Assembly: GCA_964640055.1 (NCBI GenBank)
Contig: CAZXFH010000001.1
Span: 6,744-70,743 of the forward strand
DNA: 64,000 nucleotides
Source: an uncultured bacterium
GTDB taxonomy: Bacteria; Fidelibacterota; UBA2242; JAFGTP01
Direction of reading: 5' to 3'
The position numbers and the translations under genes are program-made. Below, in pieces: positions 46,434-53,102 of the stretch. A model generated the notes under the pieces. That model was not told the DNA's origin. It saw only the letters and a program-made list of their open reading frames with translations, and did no database searches. The stretch's first letter is position 1. Each line of letters opens with the position of its first letter.

Positions 46434-47501
46434 TTAATAACTTATCTCCAGACAACTACGATCGCCTATTATGAAACGATTGGTGCTGGGTTTTGTATCC
46501 CCTATTTTGATAGATACATTTTTACCGAAAATACTCGATTCGATACGCTTGCCTTGATTTTCAATTGAGCAATAGGGCATCAGGATACTAAACTCCAGTT
46601 CCGAATTAAATATTTTACAATCATTTTCAATAGCCGTATAGGGTCCGATATAAGAATTAATGATCTTTGTATTCGCACCAATGATTACCGGTCCCCGGAT
46701 AACGCTATTTTTTATTGCAGCCCCTTTTTCAATAATTACCCTCCCGGCGATCTCACTCAACTTATCAATCGTCCCTTCTCTGCTATCCTGAATATTATCC
46801 AAGACCAAGCGGTTAGCTTCCAAGAGATCAGCTGGTTTCCCTGTGTCTTTCCACCAGCCGGTGATCTCTGAATAGGTTACCCGATACCCTTTATTCAACA
46901 GGTACTGATGGGCATCTGATATTTCCAGCTCCCCTCGTTGACTGGGTTTAATATTTTTTACTGCCTCAAAAATATTACTGTCATACAGATATATTCCCGT
47001 AACTGCATATTTACTTTTTGGTTGCTGAGGTTTCTCTTCTATGCCAACGATGCGGTTTTCTCTTATCTCAGGCACCCCGAATCTTTCCGGATCATGTACC
47101 TGGGATAACACCAAATGACAATTGGATCTATTTTGCTGAAATTCCCGGATAAACCGATCAATGCCACCGATGATAATATTATCTCCCAGATAAAATATAA
47201 ATGGATCCTTCCCGATGAAGGGCTCCGCGATCTTTATACAATGAGCCAATCCGGCCGGACGTTCCTGTGGAATATAGGTGATTTTAACCCCAAATTTCTT
47301 GCCATTTTGATAAACATGTTTTACTTCCTGTCCCTCCTGGTTGGTAATAATTCCCACCTCAGTAATACCCGCATCCCGTACATACTCCAGGGCATAATTC
47401 AAGATGGGTTTATTAGCGATCGGAATCAGATGTTTATTCTGGGTAAAAGTGATCGGGCGTAGGCGGGTTCCATGACCTCCGGCTGTTATCAACGCTTTCA
47501 T
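46434..47501 (-). CDS. sugar-phosphate nucleotidyltransferase with C-terminal left-handed beta-helix (glucose-1-phosphate thymidylyltransferase-like, long form)
   Basis: ALITAGGHGTRLRPIT signature. Hexapeptide-repeat C-terminus. Confidence 0.7.
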   Translation of the reverse strand: MKALITAGGHGTRLRPITFTQNKHLIPIANKPILNYALEYVRDAGITEVGIITNQEGQEVKHVYQNGKKFGVKITYIPQERPAGLAHCIKIAEPFIGKDPFIFYLGDNIIIGGIDRFIREFQQNRSNCHLVLSQVHDPERFGVPEIRENRIVGIEEKPQQPKSKYAVTGIYLYDSNIFEAVKNIKPSQRGELEISDAHQYLLNKGYRVTYSEITGWWKDTGKPADLLEANRLVLDNIQDSREGTIDKLSEIAGRVIIEKGAAIKNSVIRGPVIIGANTKIINSYIGPYTAIENDCKIFNSELEFSILMPYCSIENQGKRIESSIFGKNVSIKIGDTKPSTNRFIIGDRSCLEISY

Positions 47502-47516
47502 ATTCCATTCCTCTCT

Positions 47517-48845
47517 TTATTTCTCTTTAATAATTTTTGATTGCGGAACTTTAGCTATTAAATCAAGGCCCTCATTATCGATTATATCAGCCTGTATGAT
47601 CTGACCGGATTCCAGCACGTGGTTACCGGGAAACCGTACGACACAATCGACCTCCGGGGCATCCCAGGGGGTGCGACCGATCCATGCGCCATCTTTCTGC
47701 TCATCAATGATCACCGGCACCGTTTTGCGCTGCTGTTTACGAGCAAAACCAGTGGCAATCTCATACTGAATATCCATGACCCACTCTCGGCGTTCCTCCT
47801 TTAAGGAGGAAGGAATATCGTCACGCAATTCAGCCGCTGCAGTGCCCTCTTCCTCGGAATATTTAAACACGCCTAGTCTTTCAAAGCGTTGGGCTTCAAC
47901 AAAGTCCAGTAACTGGTGAAAATCTTGTTCATTTTCCGTAGGAAAGCCAACCATTAGCGAGGTTCGCAAAGCCAACTCTGGTACTTGAGACCTCATTTTC
48001 CTTAGCAAATGTTTTATTTGATCCACGGTTCTTGTCCGACGCATCAACTTTAAGATTCTGTCCGAAGCATGCTGGATCGGTATATCAACATAGGGACATA
48101 TACTGGCATGTTCCACAATTAACCGGTTGATTTTTTCATCCCAATAATCAGGGTTGGTATACATAATCCTTATCCAGGGAAAAAGGTCTAGCCGAGCTAA
48201 CTCATCCAGCAAATCATAAAGTTTACGTTTGCCATATAAATCTGTACCATATCGAGTCAAATCCTGGGCAATTAAAATCAATTCCTGAACACCCTTTTGT
48301 TTTAAATAAACTGCCTCCTGAAGCAGCTGATCTATGGGACGACTTATCTGTTTACCACGCATTTGCGGAATCGAGCAGAAACTACAGGTGTTATCGCATC
48401 CTTCAGCAATTTTCAAATAGGCATAATGACCGGGGGTCAGCAGCTCTCTGGATCTTACCAAATTATTACCGGGATAATCCCTCTGGGTAAGTATTCTTAC
48501 GATCTCTTCCTGGGAATTTACACCCAAAATCCAATCCACCTCTGGTAATTCCCGGCGTAATTCTGATGTATATCGTTGGGCAAGACATCCCATAACCAGA
48601 ATTAATTTCACGGCACCGTTTCTTTTCAATTCGATTGTGTCCAAAATGGTTTGGACCGACTCTTCCCGGGCATCATGGATAAAACCGCAGGTATTTATGA
48701 TCACGAATGCTGCCGTTTCACCTTCGGATTCATATTGAAATCCGGATTTTTCTAACATTCCCTTCAAAATTTCCGAATCAACAGTATTCTTGGGACATCC
48801 CAGACTGATAATTGTAAAAGCTCTATTTGAACCTGGTGTGTTCAA
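47517..48845 (-). CDS. rimO: ribosomal protein S12 methylthiotransferase RimO
   Basis: SLGCPKNTVDSE, radical-SAM CDNTCSFCSIP and a C-terminal TRAM domain. Confidence 0.8.
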   Translation of the reverse strand: MNTPGSNRAFTIISLGCPKNTVDSEILKGMLEKSGFQYESEGETAAFVIINTCGFIHDAREESVQTILDTIELKRNGAVKLILVMGCLAQRYTSELRRELPEVDWILGVNSQEEIVRILTQRDYPGNNLVRSRELLTPGHYAYLKIAEGCDNTCSFCSIPQMRGKQISRPIDQLLQEAVYLKQKGVQELILIAQDLTRYGTDLYGKRKLYDLLDELARLDLFPWIRIMYTNPDYWDEKINRLIVEHASICPYVDIPIQHASDRILKLMRRTRTVDQIKHLLRKMRSQVPELALRTSLMVGFPTENEQDFHQLLDFVEAQRFERLGVFKYSEEEGTAAAELRDDIPSSLKEERREWVMDIQYEIATGFARKQQRKTVPVIIDEQKDGAWIGRTPWDAPEVDCVVRFPGNHVLESGQIIQADIIDNEGLDLIAKVPQSKIIKEK

Positions 48846-48866
48846 TATATGTCCTGGATTTTTTGA

Positions 48867-50369
48867 TTAGGATTTACGGAGTAAGACATCTACATAATCA
48901 TGGGGATCAAATTCCACCAAATCCTCCAATTTCTCGCCCACCCCCAGATAACGTATCGGAATATTCAGTTTATGATTGATGGCCAAGACAATTCCTCCTT
49001 TGGCAGTCCCATCCAGTTTAGTTAATATCAATCCGCTTAAACCAACTGCTTGATTAAACTGTTCCGCCTGTACAATTCCATTCTGTCCGGCATTGGCTTC
49101 GATAACTAACCAAATATCATGCGGTGCGTCAGGATAAGCTTTATTGATGACCCGTTTTATCTTTTTCAGTTCCTCCATTAAATTGGACTTAGTATGCAAT
49201 CGTCCGGCTGTATCGATAAGTAAAACATCTATTGATTTAGCTACCGCCGATTTCACGGCATCAAAAGCAACCCCCGAGGGATCCTTACCTTTAGGATTTC
49301 CTAAAAATTCCACCCCGGATCGTTGTGCCCAAATTTTTAACTGCTGGTAAGCGGCGGCCCGATAAGTATCAGCCGCTGCCATCATCACTTGCTTACCTGC
49401 AGAGGCATATCTATGTGCCAATTTACCGATCGTCGTGGTCTTGCCCGTCCCGTTTACCCCGACCATCAGGATAATATGAGGTGATGATTGGACCTTATTA
49501 ATCACAGGTGCTTCCTCACTATTCAGAATGGCAAGCAACTCCTCTTTGAGTATATCCTTCAACTGGGCGGCTTCACTTTTCTTGACATCGCGTAATTTGT
49601 CTACCAATTCCTCAGTTAAATCCACACCGATATCCGTGGCAATTAAGGTTTCCTCAATCTCTTCTAGAACATCTTTGTTTACGGTAAAGAATTTTTTTAT
49701 CAGTGGTAATCTAGCAGCCAGTTTATATTCAGTCTTGGATAATCCTTGGTCCAATTTAGAGGTCTTCACCTCCTTCGATGGCGGTCGGGAAGTCGATTTT
49801 TCACGTATTTCACGGATAAAGCTATAAAAATATTGTATTGCTGAAATAAACATGAAAAAGATCGATACCCACATTAAAGGCATCTGGAAATTGACCGGTG
49901 TAATTTGATCTCCATAGATAAAGGCTAAAATCGTGGCGGTGGTTATCACGATAGTTATTTTCCCTAGTTTATTGGCTCCAGGTGATATTTTACAAATATT
50001 CATCATATACACACCCAGCAGGGAAATGGAAAAGTCCCGAATAAGTAAAACCCCAAAATAAAAGAACGGTACCGTATCGCTTATAACCAGGTAGAGCATT
50101 ACACTGAACATCACTATCTTGTCCGCCAGTGGATCTAGCATCTTTCCCAGAGAGGTAATTTGATTACTTATGCGCGCCAGCCAGCCATCTAACATATCGC
50201 TGAAAATACAAATAACCATAAATATGAAGGCTGTTCCACTTTGATTTTCTTTTAGAAAATATATAATAGGAATAGCCAAAGCAGCCCGGATGATGGAGAT
50301 GATATTGGATCCGGTAACAATCCGGTCCGGATGTATTTTTTCATATCTTTCCTGGACAATACGCTTCAC
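48867..50369 (-). CDS. ftsY: fusion protein: N-terminal CDP-alcohol phosphatidyltransferase (PgsA-like) domain joined to the signal-recognition-particle receptor FtsY NG domain
   Basis: Residues 58-83, DGWLAR-x8-G-x3-D-x3-D, are a perfect CDP-OH-P transferase motif, with about 5 TM helices. Residues from about 205 to 500 are FtsY (GVNGTGKTTTIGKLA, DTAGR, TKLDGTAKGG). Confidence 0.8.
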   Translation of the reverse strand: MKRIVQERYEKIHPDRIVTGSNIISIIRAALAIPIIYFLKENQSGTAFIFMVICIFSDMLDGWLARISNQITSLGKMLDPLADKIVMFSVMLYLVISDTVPFFYFGVLLIRDFSISLLGVYMMNICKISPGANKLGKITIVITTATILAFIYGDQITPVNFQMPLMWVSIFFMFISAIQYFYSFIREIREKSTSRPPSKEVKTSKLDQGLSKTEYKLAARLPLIKKFFTVNKDVLEEIEETLIATDIGVDLTEELVDKLRDVKKSEAAQLKDILKEELLAILNSEEAPVINKVQSSPHIILMVGVNGTGKTTTIGKLAHRYASAGKQVMMAAADTYRAAAYQQLKIWAQRSGVEFLGNPKGKDPSGVAFDAVKSAVAKSIDVLLIDTAGRLHTKSNLMEELKKIKRVINKAYPDAPHDIWLVIEANAGQNGIVQAEQFNQAVGLSGLILTKLDGTAKGGIVLAINHKLNIPIRYLGVGEKLEDLVEFDPHDYVDVLLRKS

Positions 50370-51157
50370 AATTGCTCCTTAATCAATATGCCTGATAATT
50401 CCTTTTTCCTTAGTTCAATTTTACGTTTCAATTGTAGATAACAGGGCAGACCTGCCCGCTTTTGTATAAGAACATTAGTACTTAATTCGGAAAAGTTCCC
50501 ATTGAATATTATTTCTCCGCTATCCATGATCCATAAAAAATCACAGACATTTTTCAGAAATTTAAAATCATGGGTTATCACAATCAATGCTTGGTATTTC
50601 TGGCGTCTTTTTATGATTCTCTGTAATTGTGACTTCCCTCGAGAGCCCAGACTAATAGTGGGCTCATCCAGGATCAAGACATCTGGTTCACAAGCAAAAT
50701 TTAAGGCCAAGGCAAACCGCCTTAACTCGCCACTACTGAGGGCATATCCATTTTTATTGATTATATCCACTAATCCAATATCAAAAAAACCCAGTACTTC
50801 TTTTATTTTTTTATATAAGCCCGTGAATTTTTGATTTCTATTACTTATCAATTGGAGCGTATCTTTTATCTTGTTCCCGAGGAACAGATTCTCTGGAAAT
50901 TGCGGTGAGTATAGGATATCTAATGCAGCAAAGTTTATATTGCTATTATGACAGGAAAAGTTTTTTTTACCCGATTGTAGATCAATTATTCCTGCTAATA
51001 TTTTTCCTAAAGTGGTCTTCCCAGATCCTGATAGACCATAAATGCCCAGCGGGGATATAAATCGGTAATCCAGCCGTTCAGTATGTAATCGAAAGCTTTT
51101 ATTTCCCGGATATTTAAAATGTAATTTATTCAGCTGCAGTGATATTGCTTCTAGCAT
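50366..51157 (-). CDS. ABC-type ATPase, EcfA/CbiO-like
   Basis: Walker A GLSGSGKTTLGK, signature LSSGELRR and Walker B LILDEP. Confidence 0.7.
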   Translation of the reverse strand: MLEAISLQLNKLHFKYPGNKSFRLHTERLDYRFISPLGIYGLSGSGKTTLGKILAGIIDLQSGKKNFSCHNSNINFAALDILYSPQFPENLFLGNKIKDTLQLISNRNQKFTGLYKKIKEVLGFFDIGLVDIINKNGYALSSGELRRFALALNFACEPDVLILDEPTISLGSRGKSQLQRIIKRRQKYQALIVITHDFKFLKNVCDFLWIMDSGEIIFNGNFSELSTNVLIQKRAGLPCYLQLKRKIELRKKELSGILIKEQL

Positions 51158-51825
51158 TGATCAAACTCATTTAAACCCAAATATGAGGTTGTTTCGCCCT
51201 GATAGACAATCCGTCCATCCTCCAGTCTGATAATATAATCAGCCAGATAAATCTCTTCTTCTTCATGAGTTGTCCATATCATGCTGATCCTGTTATCTCT
51301 CTTTTGCTCTAATCGATTGTAAAACGACATCCGGTCCACAATATCCAGAAAAGAGGTTGGTTCATCTAAAATTAATAAAGATGGCTTGGCGATAAGAATA
51401 CTCATCAGGGCGAGATGCTGTTTTTGTCCGCCGGACAATTCGTTAGGAGAATCTTTGCGTCGCTCCCAAAGTCCCATATGCACTAACGCCTCTTGCACTC
51501 TACGATCAATTTCCTTATAAGATAATCCCATATTTTCCAGATTGAAAGCCAGTTCACGCTCCAGATTTAGTTGGATCAGTTGATCATCAGGATTTTGGAA
51601 AATATACCCGATCCCCAGAGGGTTTTGTTTAAGCGTCCCCGGCAGTTGAAGTTCTCCTTGGTTAGGTTGAAGTAATCCGGCAATTATTTTTATTAAGCTT
51701 GTTTTACCGGAACCACACTCACCCGTAATGGCAACCCATCTATGGAGAGGGATCCTGAGATTTAGGTTCGTAAACAGAGGGGTTTCCGTATAATTAAAGC
51801 AAATATTTTCCAGGGTAATTCTCAC
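51151..51825 (-). CDS. ABC-type ATPase, EcfA/CbiO-like
   Basis: GECGSGKTSLIK, YIFQNPDDQL (CbiO-like), LSGGQKQ and LILDEPTS. Confidence 0.7.
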   Translation of the reverse strand: MRITLENICFNYTETPLFTNLNLRIPLHRWVAITGECGSGKTSLIKIIAGLLQPNQGELQLPGTLKQNPLGIGYIFQNPDDQLIQLNLERELAFNLENMGLSYKEIDRRVQEALVHMGLWERRKDSPNELSGGQKQHLALMSILIAKPSLLILDEPTSFLDIVDRMSFYNRLEQKRDNRISMIWTTHEEEEIYLADYIIRLEDGRIVYQGETTSYLGLNEFDQC

Positions 51826-53102
51826 TCTGACTCCAGAATTTCTTTAACGGTACGTGCTGAGGCACCCAAATTTTTAATAATCACCTGCCGGGCGGTTATA
51901 GCCATATGTTCATAATATCCCCGTTCATTGATCATATGAGCTATTTCACAGTACAAATCCTCACTATTAGCACAACATCGACCACCTCCACTTTCCAATA
52001 ACAATTTTGCTTCTCTTGAATTGTGAAAGGTCGGCCCGAATAAAACCGGTATAGTTGCAGCAGCGGGTTCCATTACATTGTGAATCGATCCCCGAAAACT
52101 ACCCCCTATAAAGGCCACATCCGCCTGATGATACAGCTCTGCAAGTACCCCGACACTATCTATTAGAACCACCGCTGTCTTGGTGTCTGTCTTATCAACC
52201 TCCGAAAATCTAGTAGTTTGATAGCCCTGATATTCAAAATTGTCCTCCAAAGTCTCCAATGCATACTCGTTTGGTTCATGGGGAGCGAGAATCACTCTGA
52301 ACTGTTGATAGATTTGCATCAATTTGAAAATTGCCGGTAATATATGCCGGGCATCCTGCGGCCAAATACTACCGCATATTAACACAAAACCCGACGGAAA
52401 TAGCTGGGGTATCTTGGTGAGAACTCTTTTCTGGGCCCTGTGAAACACCTGATCATAGCGGGTATCCCCCAGATTAAGTACTTTTATCGGTACAGAACCT
52501 ATTAAACTTTCAACCGAGTGCTTATCCTCCTGGGAGATTGCATAAATATAATCCAGACAGCGATAGATCTCACCGAAAAAAGTTTTTACCACGGGAAACC
52601 ATTTAGTACTTTTACGGCGTACCCTGGCGGACATGAGATAGGTTTTTACTTTATGCCTGCGTGCGTTCAGGATCAAATTCATCCAGAGTTCATAAGTAAC
52701 AAATATGATCTTGCGTGGCTTTAATTTTTGAATAAACTTCCGAGTCCTTAAGAAGGTATCCAGTGGAAGATAAATATAAAGATCTACTTCAGTAACCCGC
52801 TTGGCATGTTTGAATCCACTGGGTGAAGTGAAACTGGCGATAATTCCTATATCGGGGCGCAAGGCCTTTAATCCTTTGATTACCGGCCTGGCTTGTTCAA
52901 ATTCACCTAGGGAAGCCGAATGAATTAAAAAAAGAGGTTTATGTGGATTGGCTGTACGGTATTTACGTACCTCTCGCCAACTACGACGCCTTCCTTGAAT
53001 GCCTTCCCGGGATTTCTTACTGAACAGATAGGAGATATGATAGATCATAAAGGATAAAGGAATGAAAATGACATTATATATAATAAACCAGAAAAAAATC
53101 AA
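51822..53102 (-). CDS. waaA: 3-deoxy-D-manno-octulosonic acid (Kdo) transferase
   Basis: N-terminal TM segment and LIHSASLGEFEQARPVI. About 426 aa. Confidence 0.75.
   Translation of the reverse strand: MIFFWFIIYNVIFIPLSFMIYHISYLFSKKSREGIQGRRRSWREVRKYRTANPHKPLFLIHSASLGEFEQARPVIKGLKALRPDIGIIASFTSPSGFKHAKRVTEVDLYIYLPLDTFLRTRKFIQKLKPRKIIFVTYELWMNLILNARRHKVKTYLMSARVRRKSTKWFPVVKTFFGEIYRCLDYIYAISQEDKHSVESLIGSVPIKVLNLGDTRYDQVFHRAQKRVLTKIPQLFPSGFVLICGSIWPQDARHILPAIFKLMQIYQQFRVILAPHEPNEYALETLEDNFEYQGYQTTRFSEVDKTDTKTAVVLIDSVGVLAELYHQADVAFIGGSFRGSIHNVMEPAAATIPVLFGPTFHNSREAKLLLESGGGRCCANSEDLYCEIAHMINERGYYEHMAITARQVIIKNLGASARTVKEILESE

Follow-up and report, generated by a model that had tools for sequence, protein, structure and literature searches.

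How the bacterial receptor for the signal recognition particle (SRP), FtsY, finds the membrane and is activated there is a long-standing question; in E. coli anionic lipids are needed and artificial polytopic anchors are tolerated. Described forms include the E. coli protein, in which an acidic A-domain precedes the N and G domains (NG) and membrane association is peripheral, reversible and lipid-dependent, and the short NG-only protein exemplified by that of Thermotoga maritima (1VMA). FtsY favours the anionic lipids phosphatidylglycerol (PG) and cardiolipin, and in the eukaryotic SRP receptor SRalpha is held permanently at the target membrane on the transmembrane (TM) GTPase SRbeta (PMC5533587). 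As summarized in PMC5533587 and PMC6022935, actinobacterial FtsYs, among them that of Streptomyces lividans, have hydrophobic N-termini and are putatively integral (Bibi et al. 2001, Maeda et al. 2008). FtsY-Ffh placed on the C-terminus of the six-TM protein TatC complements E. coli (Braig et al. 2011, PMC3128533). The 64-kb window analysed here (the whole stretch, positions 1-64000, taken from contig CAZXFH010000001.1 of an uncultured bacterium of the Fidelibacterota) contains a gene on the minus strand (48867..50369) in which a cytidine diphosphate (CDP)-alcohol phosphatidyltransferase of a PgsA-like kind is joined to a complete FtsY. The product is probably a bifunctional inner-membrane protein, with a competent PgsA-related transferase as the permanent anchor of the SRP receptor, derived by fusion of an older gene pair. 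Membrane-anchored FtsY is already known; a conserved lipid-synthesis enzyme as the anchor of FtsY, from a conserved gene pair, is new. Full-text literature searches found no description of the transferase-FtsY architecture and, to our knowledge, no natural physical link between the SRP receptor and lipid synthesis is known, only dependence. The locus supplies such a link in the form of a 'Rosetta-stone' fusion kept over deep divergence within one phylum.

The gene has 500 codons plus a stop codon, and its GTG start overlaps the stop codon of the upstream ABC (ATP-binding cassette) ATPase gene by 4 nt (GTGA). The open reading frame (ORF) listing of the window gives one 500-residue frame with zero internal stops, in which Pfam matches place CDP-OH_P_transf (PF01066) at residues 21-174 (E=1e-28), SRP54_N (PF02881) at residues 227-278 and the SRP54 GTPase (PF00448) at residues 297-497 (E=7e-77). 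The protein scored 337.5 bits over residues 230-496 against the NCBIfam FtsY equivalog TIGR00064 (cutoff 260.7), which makes it a member of that family. The sequence-only reading of this DNA had described a single ORF of this composition, with a textbook CDP-alcohol motif and, behind a short linker of basic character, the whole NG domain of FtsY, all of which are borne out. The transferase domain spans residues 17-194 (49788..50321; this and all other parts of the gene are on the minus strand). Between TM2 and TM3 it carries every residue of the CDP-alcohol signature D-x2-D-G-x2-A-R-x7-12-G-x3-D-x3-D in the form D58-x2-D61-G62-x2-A65-R66-x8-G75-x3-D79-x3-D83 (DMLDGWLARISNQITSLGKMLDPLAD, D58 to D83; 50121..50198). 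A basic, weakly conserved linker (residues 195-205, 49755..49787), which is disordered at residues 195-202 in the AlphaFold model with a predicted local distance difference test score (pLDDT) below 50, leads from TM6 to the N-terminus of FtsY. It is followed by a conserved basic segment, L206-F228 (LDQGLSKTEYKLAARLPLIKKFF, 49686..49754), that matches in position the extreme N-terminus of a stand-alone short FtsY, MINFGLNKTGRFLASRLPLLGRFF. In an alignment of 41 fused proteins L206, G209, L210, K212, T213, P222 and L223 of this segment are near-invariant; its hydrophobic moment is 0.4-0.5 and its net charge +2 to +4, and the segment is a candidate for the lipid-binding alphaN1 helix. The four-helix bundle of the N domain (residues 229-295, 49485..49685; PF02881, TIGR00064) and the SRP-type GTPase of the G domain (residues 296-497, 48879..49484) complete the protein. 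The P-loop GVNGTGKTT (residues 304-312, 49434-49460) and the motifs DTYRAAA, DTAGR and TKLDGTAKGG are present in the fusion and invariant across the 41 homologues, as expected of FtsY. Neither a further CDP-alcohol motif nor a further SRP-type GTPase was found within the 64-kb window, which is also without ffh and without 4.5S RNA (zero matches for the RNA in an Rfam search). The window has zero tRNA genes and zero Rfam families at the gathering threshold.

Hydropathy and two AlphaFold models gave six TM helices (residues 20-40, 44-68, 73-96, 102-126, 134-156 and 162-194) rather than the 'about five' of the sequence-only reading. Since the number of helices is even and the catalytic loop between TM2 and TM3 is cytoplasmic in S. 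aureus PgsA, the C-terminus with the FtsY part is predicted to be cytoplasmic, and both termini would lie on that side of the membrane. The model of the N-terminal domain (pLDDT 86) has as its closest PDB fold S. aureus PgsA (7DRK/7DRJ; template modelling score 0.71-0.77, root-mean-square deviation 2.5 A), with phosphatidylinositol-phosphate synthases ranking behind. The top fold matches are all CDP-alcohol transferases, consistent with the six-TM core fold of that family. The same structure was found by sequence when the domain was searched against PDB with phmmer (7DRJ, E=2.6e-16). The NG part aligned with solved FtsY structures in Foldseek with target-normalised template modelling scores of 0.83-0.89 and 42-50% identity, the matches including 6CY5, 2Q9B and 1VMA (E~1e-24), and has the NG fold. 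TM6, the helix nearest the junction, bears S176 and Y180, residues that line the acceptor entrance in S. aureus PgsA.

The fusion is not confined to the window and recurs among the Marinimicrobia, a group of uncultured marine bacteria. Among 5.8 billion proteins searched, about 49 clusters combine PF01066 with PF00448; they are 53-83% identical to the query at a query coverage of 93-100% and are drawn from JGI, ENA, NCBI and Logan assemblies. The named database entries read 'FtsY [Candidatus Marinimicrobia/Neomarinimicrobiota]'; the plain label 'FtsY' given by the source databases conceals the enzyme domain. The 41 full-length proteins used for conservation represent 90%-identity clusters that could be aligned without frame problems. 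The fused ORF is also found in two GTDB species representatives (L007, GCA_029935835.1, 50% GC, and L008, GCA_001577215.1, 33% GC). When the N-terminal domain was run exhaustively with HMMER against 1.84 billion representatives, another fused protein of far greater divergence came to light (P0193, 525 residues, N-terminal domain 38% identical). The P0193 gene is in the same operon (kdtA, ABC, ABC, fusion, rimO) and was recovered twice, from an NCBI assembly and from a Logan run. Mean pairwise identity among the 41 proteins is 56% for the N-terminal domain, 52% for the FtsY N region and 71% for the G domain, and drops to 19% for residues 187-205, which overlap the end of TM6. The distance from the end of TM6 to the GLxKT motif is mostly 16-20 residues (range 6-33). 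TM6 is intact in all recurring fused proteins, and the linker, variable in sequence and length, is yet always open and basic.

The relatives also indicate how the fusion is likely to have arisen. The core string kdtA, ABC, ABC, [CDP-OH_P_transf, FtsY], rimO is shared by the Marinimicrobia loci L001-L003, L005, L093 and L094. In L001-L003, which follow the order of the window throughout (kdtA, ABC, ABC, pair, rimO, NTP-transferase), the fusion is replaced by a 212-residue CDP-OH_P_transf gene overlapping the gene for a 294-residue FtsY by 8 nt. The split enzyme ends in ...ANLSKND* and the split FtsY begins with MINFGLNKTG, while the fused junction reads SKLDQGLSKTE in the context ...KTSKLDQGLSKTEYKLAARLPLIKKFF; the match indicates that the full enzyme has been joined to the full N-terminus of FtsY, and that a 1-nt frame change would be enough for fusion. 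Other arrangements of the pair are two in-frame stops between the genes (L009), a spacer of ~95 nt (L011) or ~110 nt (L071, a bin labelled Rhodothermales) and an overlapping variant-pgsA/ftsY pair (L016, a bin labelled Ignavibacteriaceae). In L005 and L006 an unrelated gene of 210 residues stands between the two, and the FtsY there (P0051, 332 residues) has a single N-terminal TM helix of its own. That FtsY has its own helix where a gene was inserted in the pair suggests that selection maintains permanent membrane anchoring. The inserted gene was considered as a decayed remnant of the fused domain and rejected as such, for it encodes an unrelated small membrane protein, with zero family matches, between AT-rich spacers. 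In these two loci (L005 4551-6999, L006 324-2772) the spacer in the motif of the pgsA-like protein is 12 residues rather than 8 (DGYLARMAIRFANTNNHIGKLLDPLAD). A rough neighbour-joining tree of NG domains, computed without support values, nests the split 294-residue clade and P0051 among the fused forms and pairs fused P0193 with split L009, a pattern suggestive of an early fusion that was later undone in some lineages, or of switching back and forth. The fusion would descend from an older, translationally coupled pgsA-like/ftsY pair, conserved in Marinimicrobia and sporadic in other members of the Fibrobacterota-Chlorobiota-Bacteroidota group, in which small changes (1 nt at the 8-nt overlap, or an in-frame stop gained or lost) may toggle between the fused and split states.

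Residues of the enzyme domain were compared with those of S. aureus PgsA, the numbering of which is used from here on. In that enzyme the motif is D57xxD60G61xxA64R65...G74xxxD78xxxD82; N5, R65 and K135 bind CDP-diacylglycerol (CDP-DAG); K83, R110, R118, K137 and Y181 contact the 3'-phosphate of phosphatidylglycerophosphate (PGP); and T138 bonds the 2'-OH, with S177 nearby (PMC8640168). The fusion has the same six-TM fold and an identical D-x2-DG-x2-AR-x8-G-x3-D-x3-D motif, and keeps N5, R65, K75, K83, R110, K135, S177 and Y181. All eight motif residues, including the aspartates that the sequence-only reading wished to see intact, together with K75, K83, R110, K135, S177 and Y181, are identical in all 41 of the fused proteins. 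Among the contacts to the head group (K83, R110, R118, K137, Y181, T138 and S177), however, three are replaced: R118 by G in 39/41, K137 by S, A or T, and T138 by I, V or L, altering the pocket for the 3'-phosphate and 2'-OH. The three residues are retained in 3/3 canonical PgsAs compared (S. aureus, Ignavibacteria and Nannocystaceae). The variant signature is shared by the split partners and by the stand-alone relatives P0134 and P0135 (Bacteroidota, Calditrichia) and P0190-P0192; 146 of the top HMMER representatives could be assigned to a type, and 134 of them carry it. The fusion scored 90.6 bits against the pgsA equivalog TIGR00560, below the cutoff of 109.1, and 67.3 bits against the ClsA cardiolipin synthase family NF053678 (cutoff 240). 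All ftsY-linked proteins have TIGR00560 as best family, yet at 82-109 bits, at or below the cutoff, while a canonical Ignavibacteria PgsA (P0167, in the context pgsA-pgpA-cinA-recA) scored 132.8 bits. The earlier term 'PgsA-like' holds for family and fold, for which pgsA is the best match, and does not extend to equivalog membership or to the three head-group contacts.

These results point to a catalytically intact CDP-DAG phosphatidyltransferase of a distinct PgsA-related subfamily, the activity of which is predicted from the conserved residues. The acceptor pocket of the subfamily lacks some of the contacts to the terminal phosphate; glycerol-3-phosphate may nonetheless be the acceptor, or else a non-phosphorylated alcohol, for instance PG, in which case the product would be cardiolipin. 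In the split clade with the 294-residue FtsY (L003 5370-6008 and P0189) K83 is replaced by C or A, and RYF stands for RDF after R110; the acceptor pocket there has drifted further than in the fused proteins, in which K83 is kept in 41/41. Seven further proteins of 340-420 residues (P0196, P0209, P0221, P0238, P0248, P0267 and P0301) have two PF01066 domains in tandem and, since PgsA-type enzymes are homodimers, resemble covalently linked dimers. Another member of the subfamily, P0303 (494 residues), has an unusual C-terminal fusion of its own, in which an N-terminal CDP-OH_P_transf is followed by a region with a weak Vps62 (PF06101) match. No canonical pgsA was found in a fusion-carrying genome, of which only small parts were examined. 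The best candidate for that role, P0152, was rejected, since it is on a 66% GC contig of a different assembly that shares no other gene with the Marinimicrobia material.

Overlapping genes in different frames, such as those of L001-L003, would be merged by a single sequencing indel, and a missed stop or an annotation error would have the same effect, so that the fused frame might have been an artefact of an adjacent pgsA-like/ftsY pair. One such case was found. P0084 (L004; 504 residues, 39% identical) was considered as an independent fusion and rejected because its middle section is out of frame: its true C-terminal TM helices are in another frame (L004 6359..6562), and the locus is an overlapping adjacent pair in which a sequencing frameshift is probable. 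Contigs of the ERZ250395xx/ERZ250394xx series show likely frameshift errors at L004 6001-7515, where pgsA-like runs into ftsY, and at L088 5067-6297 of the same run, where cinA is in three pieces; fusions seen only in contigs of such runs deserve distrust. The fusion described here is of a different kind: no fewer than 41 separate clusters, as little as 52% identical and put together by different assemblers from four independent data sources, keep the same frame open, as do L007 and L008 at widely different GC content and P0193 from two sources, always with an intact TM6 and an open, basic linker. The artefact explanation is effectively refuted, and with it the misassembly that the sequence-only reading had asked to exclude; no sign of a frameshift was found, as that reading had stated. 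The refutation by two separate genes that it had named fails for the fusion itself, while relatives do carry the pair adjacent and separate. A further alternative is that the gene yields two products, the fusion and a free, soluble FtsY initiated internally at the old ftsY start. An in-frame TTG (L206, 49752-49754) is located where a stand-alone FtsY would start, and upstream of it the linker-coding region contains a perfect 10-mer resembling a Shine-Dalgarno (SD) sequence, AAGGAGGTGA (49766-49775), of which this is the only copy in the window with both strands counted. GGAGG and TTG are, however, 14 nt apart, more than is usual; L007 has the TTG and L008 has TTA, both without the SD-like sequence, and the nearest homologue, P0002, reads KDLT for the KEVK encoded by the SD-carrying codons. 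A conserved internal start for free FtsY is unsupported by these comparisons; the 10-mer probably arose by chance or is a relic of recent date, the gene is expected to yield one polypeptide, and dual products are highly improbable.

Two other alternatives concern the enzyme domain. It could have lost transferase function and remain as a six-helix anchor for FtsY. Engineered FtsY functions on unrelated polytopic anchors, P0051 manages with a single TM helix, and three of the head-group-binding residues of canonical PgsA are gone, all of which such a remnant would accommodate. A pure anchor is nevertheless not expected to retain charged aspartates inside a membrane domain, and 41/41 proteins, with N-terminal domains that diverge to 38% pairwise identity, have kept the eight motif residues for metal and CDP binding along with six others in contact with substrate. 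Moreover, the same signature is found in stand-alone members that anchor nothing (P0134, P0135 and P0190-P0192). Loss of function is very unlikely on these grounds, and the suggestion that homologs might prove to be generic TM anchors lacking the motif was not upheld. Alternatively, the domain could be the sole phosphatidylglycerophosphate synthase of the genome, a housekeeping enzyme that ties PG synthesis physically to the SRP receptor. The best family match (TIGR00560), the position of S. aureus PgsA as the best solved structure by both sequence and fold, and the retention of K83, R110, S177 and Y181 are in agreement with this role, and no second CDP-alcohol motif was detected within the window or in any Marinimicrobia locus examined. 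Set against it are the score below the equivalog cutoff and the change of R118, K137 and T138 to G, S/T and I/V throughout a subfamily from which canonical PgsAs differ in retaining them. Ignavibacteria in addition own a canonical pgsA (P0167) while the Ignavibacteriaceae-labelled bin L016 has the variant beside ftsY, which suggests paralogy. The housekeeping role is a possibility to be taken seriously, although on balance doubtful. Still less probable is a coupling device in which an anionic or otherwise special phospholipid (PGP/PG, cardiolipin or one with another head group) would be produced by the transferase right beside the SRP receptor, and would create the lipid surroundings that activate FtsY and the adjacent SecYEG. 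The preference of FtsY for anionic lipids makes co-localisation with a phosphatidyltransferase suggestive, and genetic work attributed to Erez et al. in 2010 is said to tie FtsY function to acidic lipids; that local lipid synthesis feeds activation of the receptor or of SecYEG is speculative. Were coupling true, membrane-protein insertion and membrane-lipid supply would be matched at one site, a homodimeric PgsA-type enzyme would present the receptor as a pair, and the pgsA-like/ftsY pair of split genomes would imply a non-covalent complex of the same kind.

In the preferred interpretation, a competent transferase serving as permanent anchor, the N-terminal six-TM domain would be a catalytically competent CDP-DAG phosphatidyltransferase, and its TM6 would continue by way of a basic tether, ~18 residues long in the majority of homologues, into a complete FtsY NG with its N-terminus intact. 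The enzyme domain would act as a permanent polytopic anchor at the cytoplasmic face in place of the acidic A-domain or transient lipid binding of other bacteria, and the lipid-sensing N-terminal helix of the receptor would be placed beside the cytoplasmic mouth of an enzyme making phospholipid from CDP-DAG. The fusion would presumably be the only FtsY of the cell. Tethering of the SRP receptor by the transferase domain had been proposed in the sequence-only reading, and is supported by the recurrence of the fusion and the conserved motif; the anchoring role is a prediction, and the link of protein targeting to the site of lipid synthesis, which that reading had also raised, is conjectural.

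Comparison with the described systems indicates both what is shared and what is particular to the fusion. It is like the E. coli and T. maritima proteins in having a complete NG, all GTPase motifs and a basic N-terminal segment, and differs from E. coli FtsY in the absence of the acidic A-domain and in an NG that is covalently joined to a six-TM enzyme instead of associating peripherally and reversibly with lipids. With the actinobacterial integral class (Bibi et al. 2001) it shares membrane segments N-terminal to NG in the same polypeptide, six in this case. The actinobacterial anchor is, in the accounts cited above, a short hydrophobic segment to which no activity is ascribed, whereas that of the fusion is a six-helix enzyme domain with conserved catalytic residues; P0051, with its single helix, is of the simple actinobacterial kind. 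The TatC-FtsY-Ffh construct has the same topology, a polytopic protein of six TM helices with a cytoplasmic C-terminus joined to NG, although it is laboratory-made with an arbitrary anchor while the fusion is natural, ancient and conserved, with a lipid-synthesis enzyme as anchor. Together, the polytopic-anchor constructs and the actinobacterial FtsYs indicate that anchoring is compatible with SRP-receptor function. As in the eukaryotic receptor, NG would be held permanently at the target membrane, covalently through a lipid-synthesis enzyme rather than non-covalently through a GTPase. From the side of the enzyme, the fusion differs from S. aureus PgsA in the addition of a 300-residue cytoplasmic GTPase at the C-terminus. 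Archaeoglobus IPCT-DIPPS (4MND, among the fold matches) is likewise a natural fusion, of a soluble cytoplasmic domain with the membrane domain of a CDP-alcohol transferase; its partner is the enzyme of the preceding step and is N-terminal, while that of the fusion belongs to protein targeting and is C-terminal.

Several observations weigh against a permanent enzymatic anchor for FtsY. A large Marinimicrobia clade thrives with the unanchored 294-residue FtsY, and anchoring is for that reason not obligatory. The variant genes P0134 and P0135 do not adjoin ftsY. Replacement of R118, K137 and T138 and the sub-threshold pgsA score imply that the product may be neither PGP nor PG. In the GTDB neighbourhood comparison, which covered the best 80 matching loci of the scan, the 4 kb upstream of ftsY lack a CDP-alcohol motif in 74/80 loci, which match through the FtsY part alone and belong almost without exception to other phyla. 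The motif is found there in 6/80, exactly those loci that match both domains; pgsA-ftsY adjacency as a general bacterial trait was rejected on this count. The pairing is restricted to particular lineages, and a frameshift could have fixed what was a neutral accident of operon order. Finally, the whole case rests on sequence. The recurring forms offer natural controls, namely the overlapping split genes, the split by in-frame stops and the version with a single-TM anchor, and the set is a direct experimental handle on the part that lipid synthesis at the receptor may play in co-translational targeting. The locus further draws attention to a PgsA-like subfamily that is large and uncharacterised and has a changed acceptor pocket.

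The fusion is part of a conserved, tightly packed string of minus-strand genes (46434..53102) identified from the ORFs and a family search, and is located between the ABC genes and rimO. The string begins with a kdtA/waaA-like gene (51822-53102) and two overlapping ECF (energy-coupling factor)-type ABC ATPase genes (51151-51825 and 50366-51157), all three below equivalog cutoffs, and continues after the fusion with rimO (47517-48845) and a long-form rmlA (46434-47501). An rmlA-like NTP_transferase gene directly after rimO is found in the window and L001-L003 only. Family searches with these neighbours (kdtA-like, ABC ATPases, rimO and rmlA) yielded no functional clue. The ABC ATPase pair (50366-51825), for which the best matches are ECF-transporter ATPases far under the cutoffs, precedes the pgsA-like/ftsY unit in every Marinimicrobia locus seen, and the gene string of the window shows no sign of a permease or of an EcfT/S gene. 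In E. coli, ftsY is followed by an ABC ATPase gene, ftsE. The variant operon of L005 and L006 has a BrnT/BrnA toxin-antitoxin pair just 3' of rimO.

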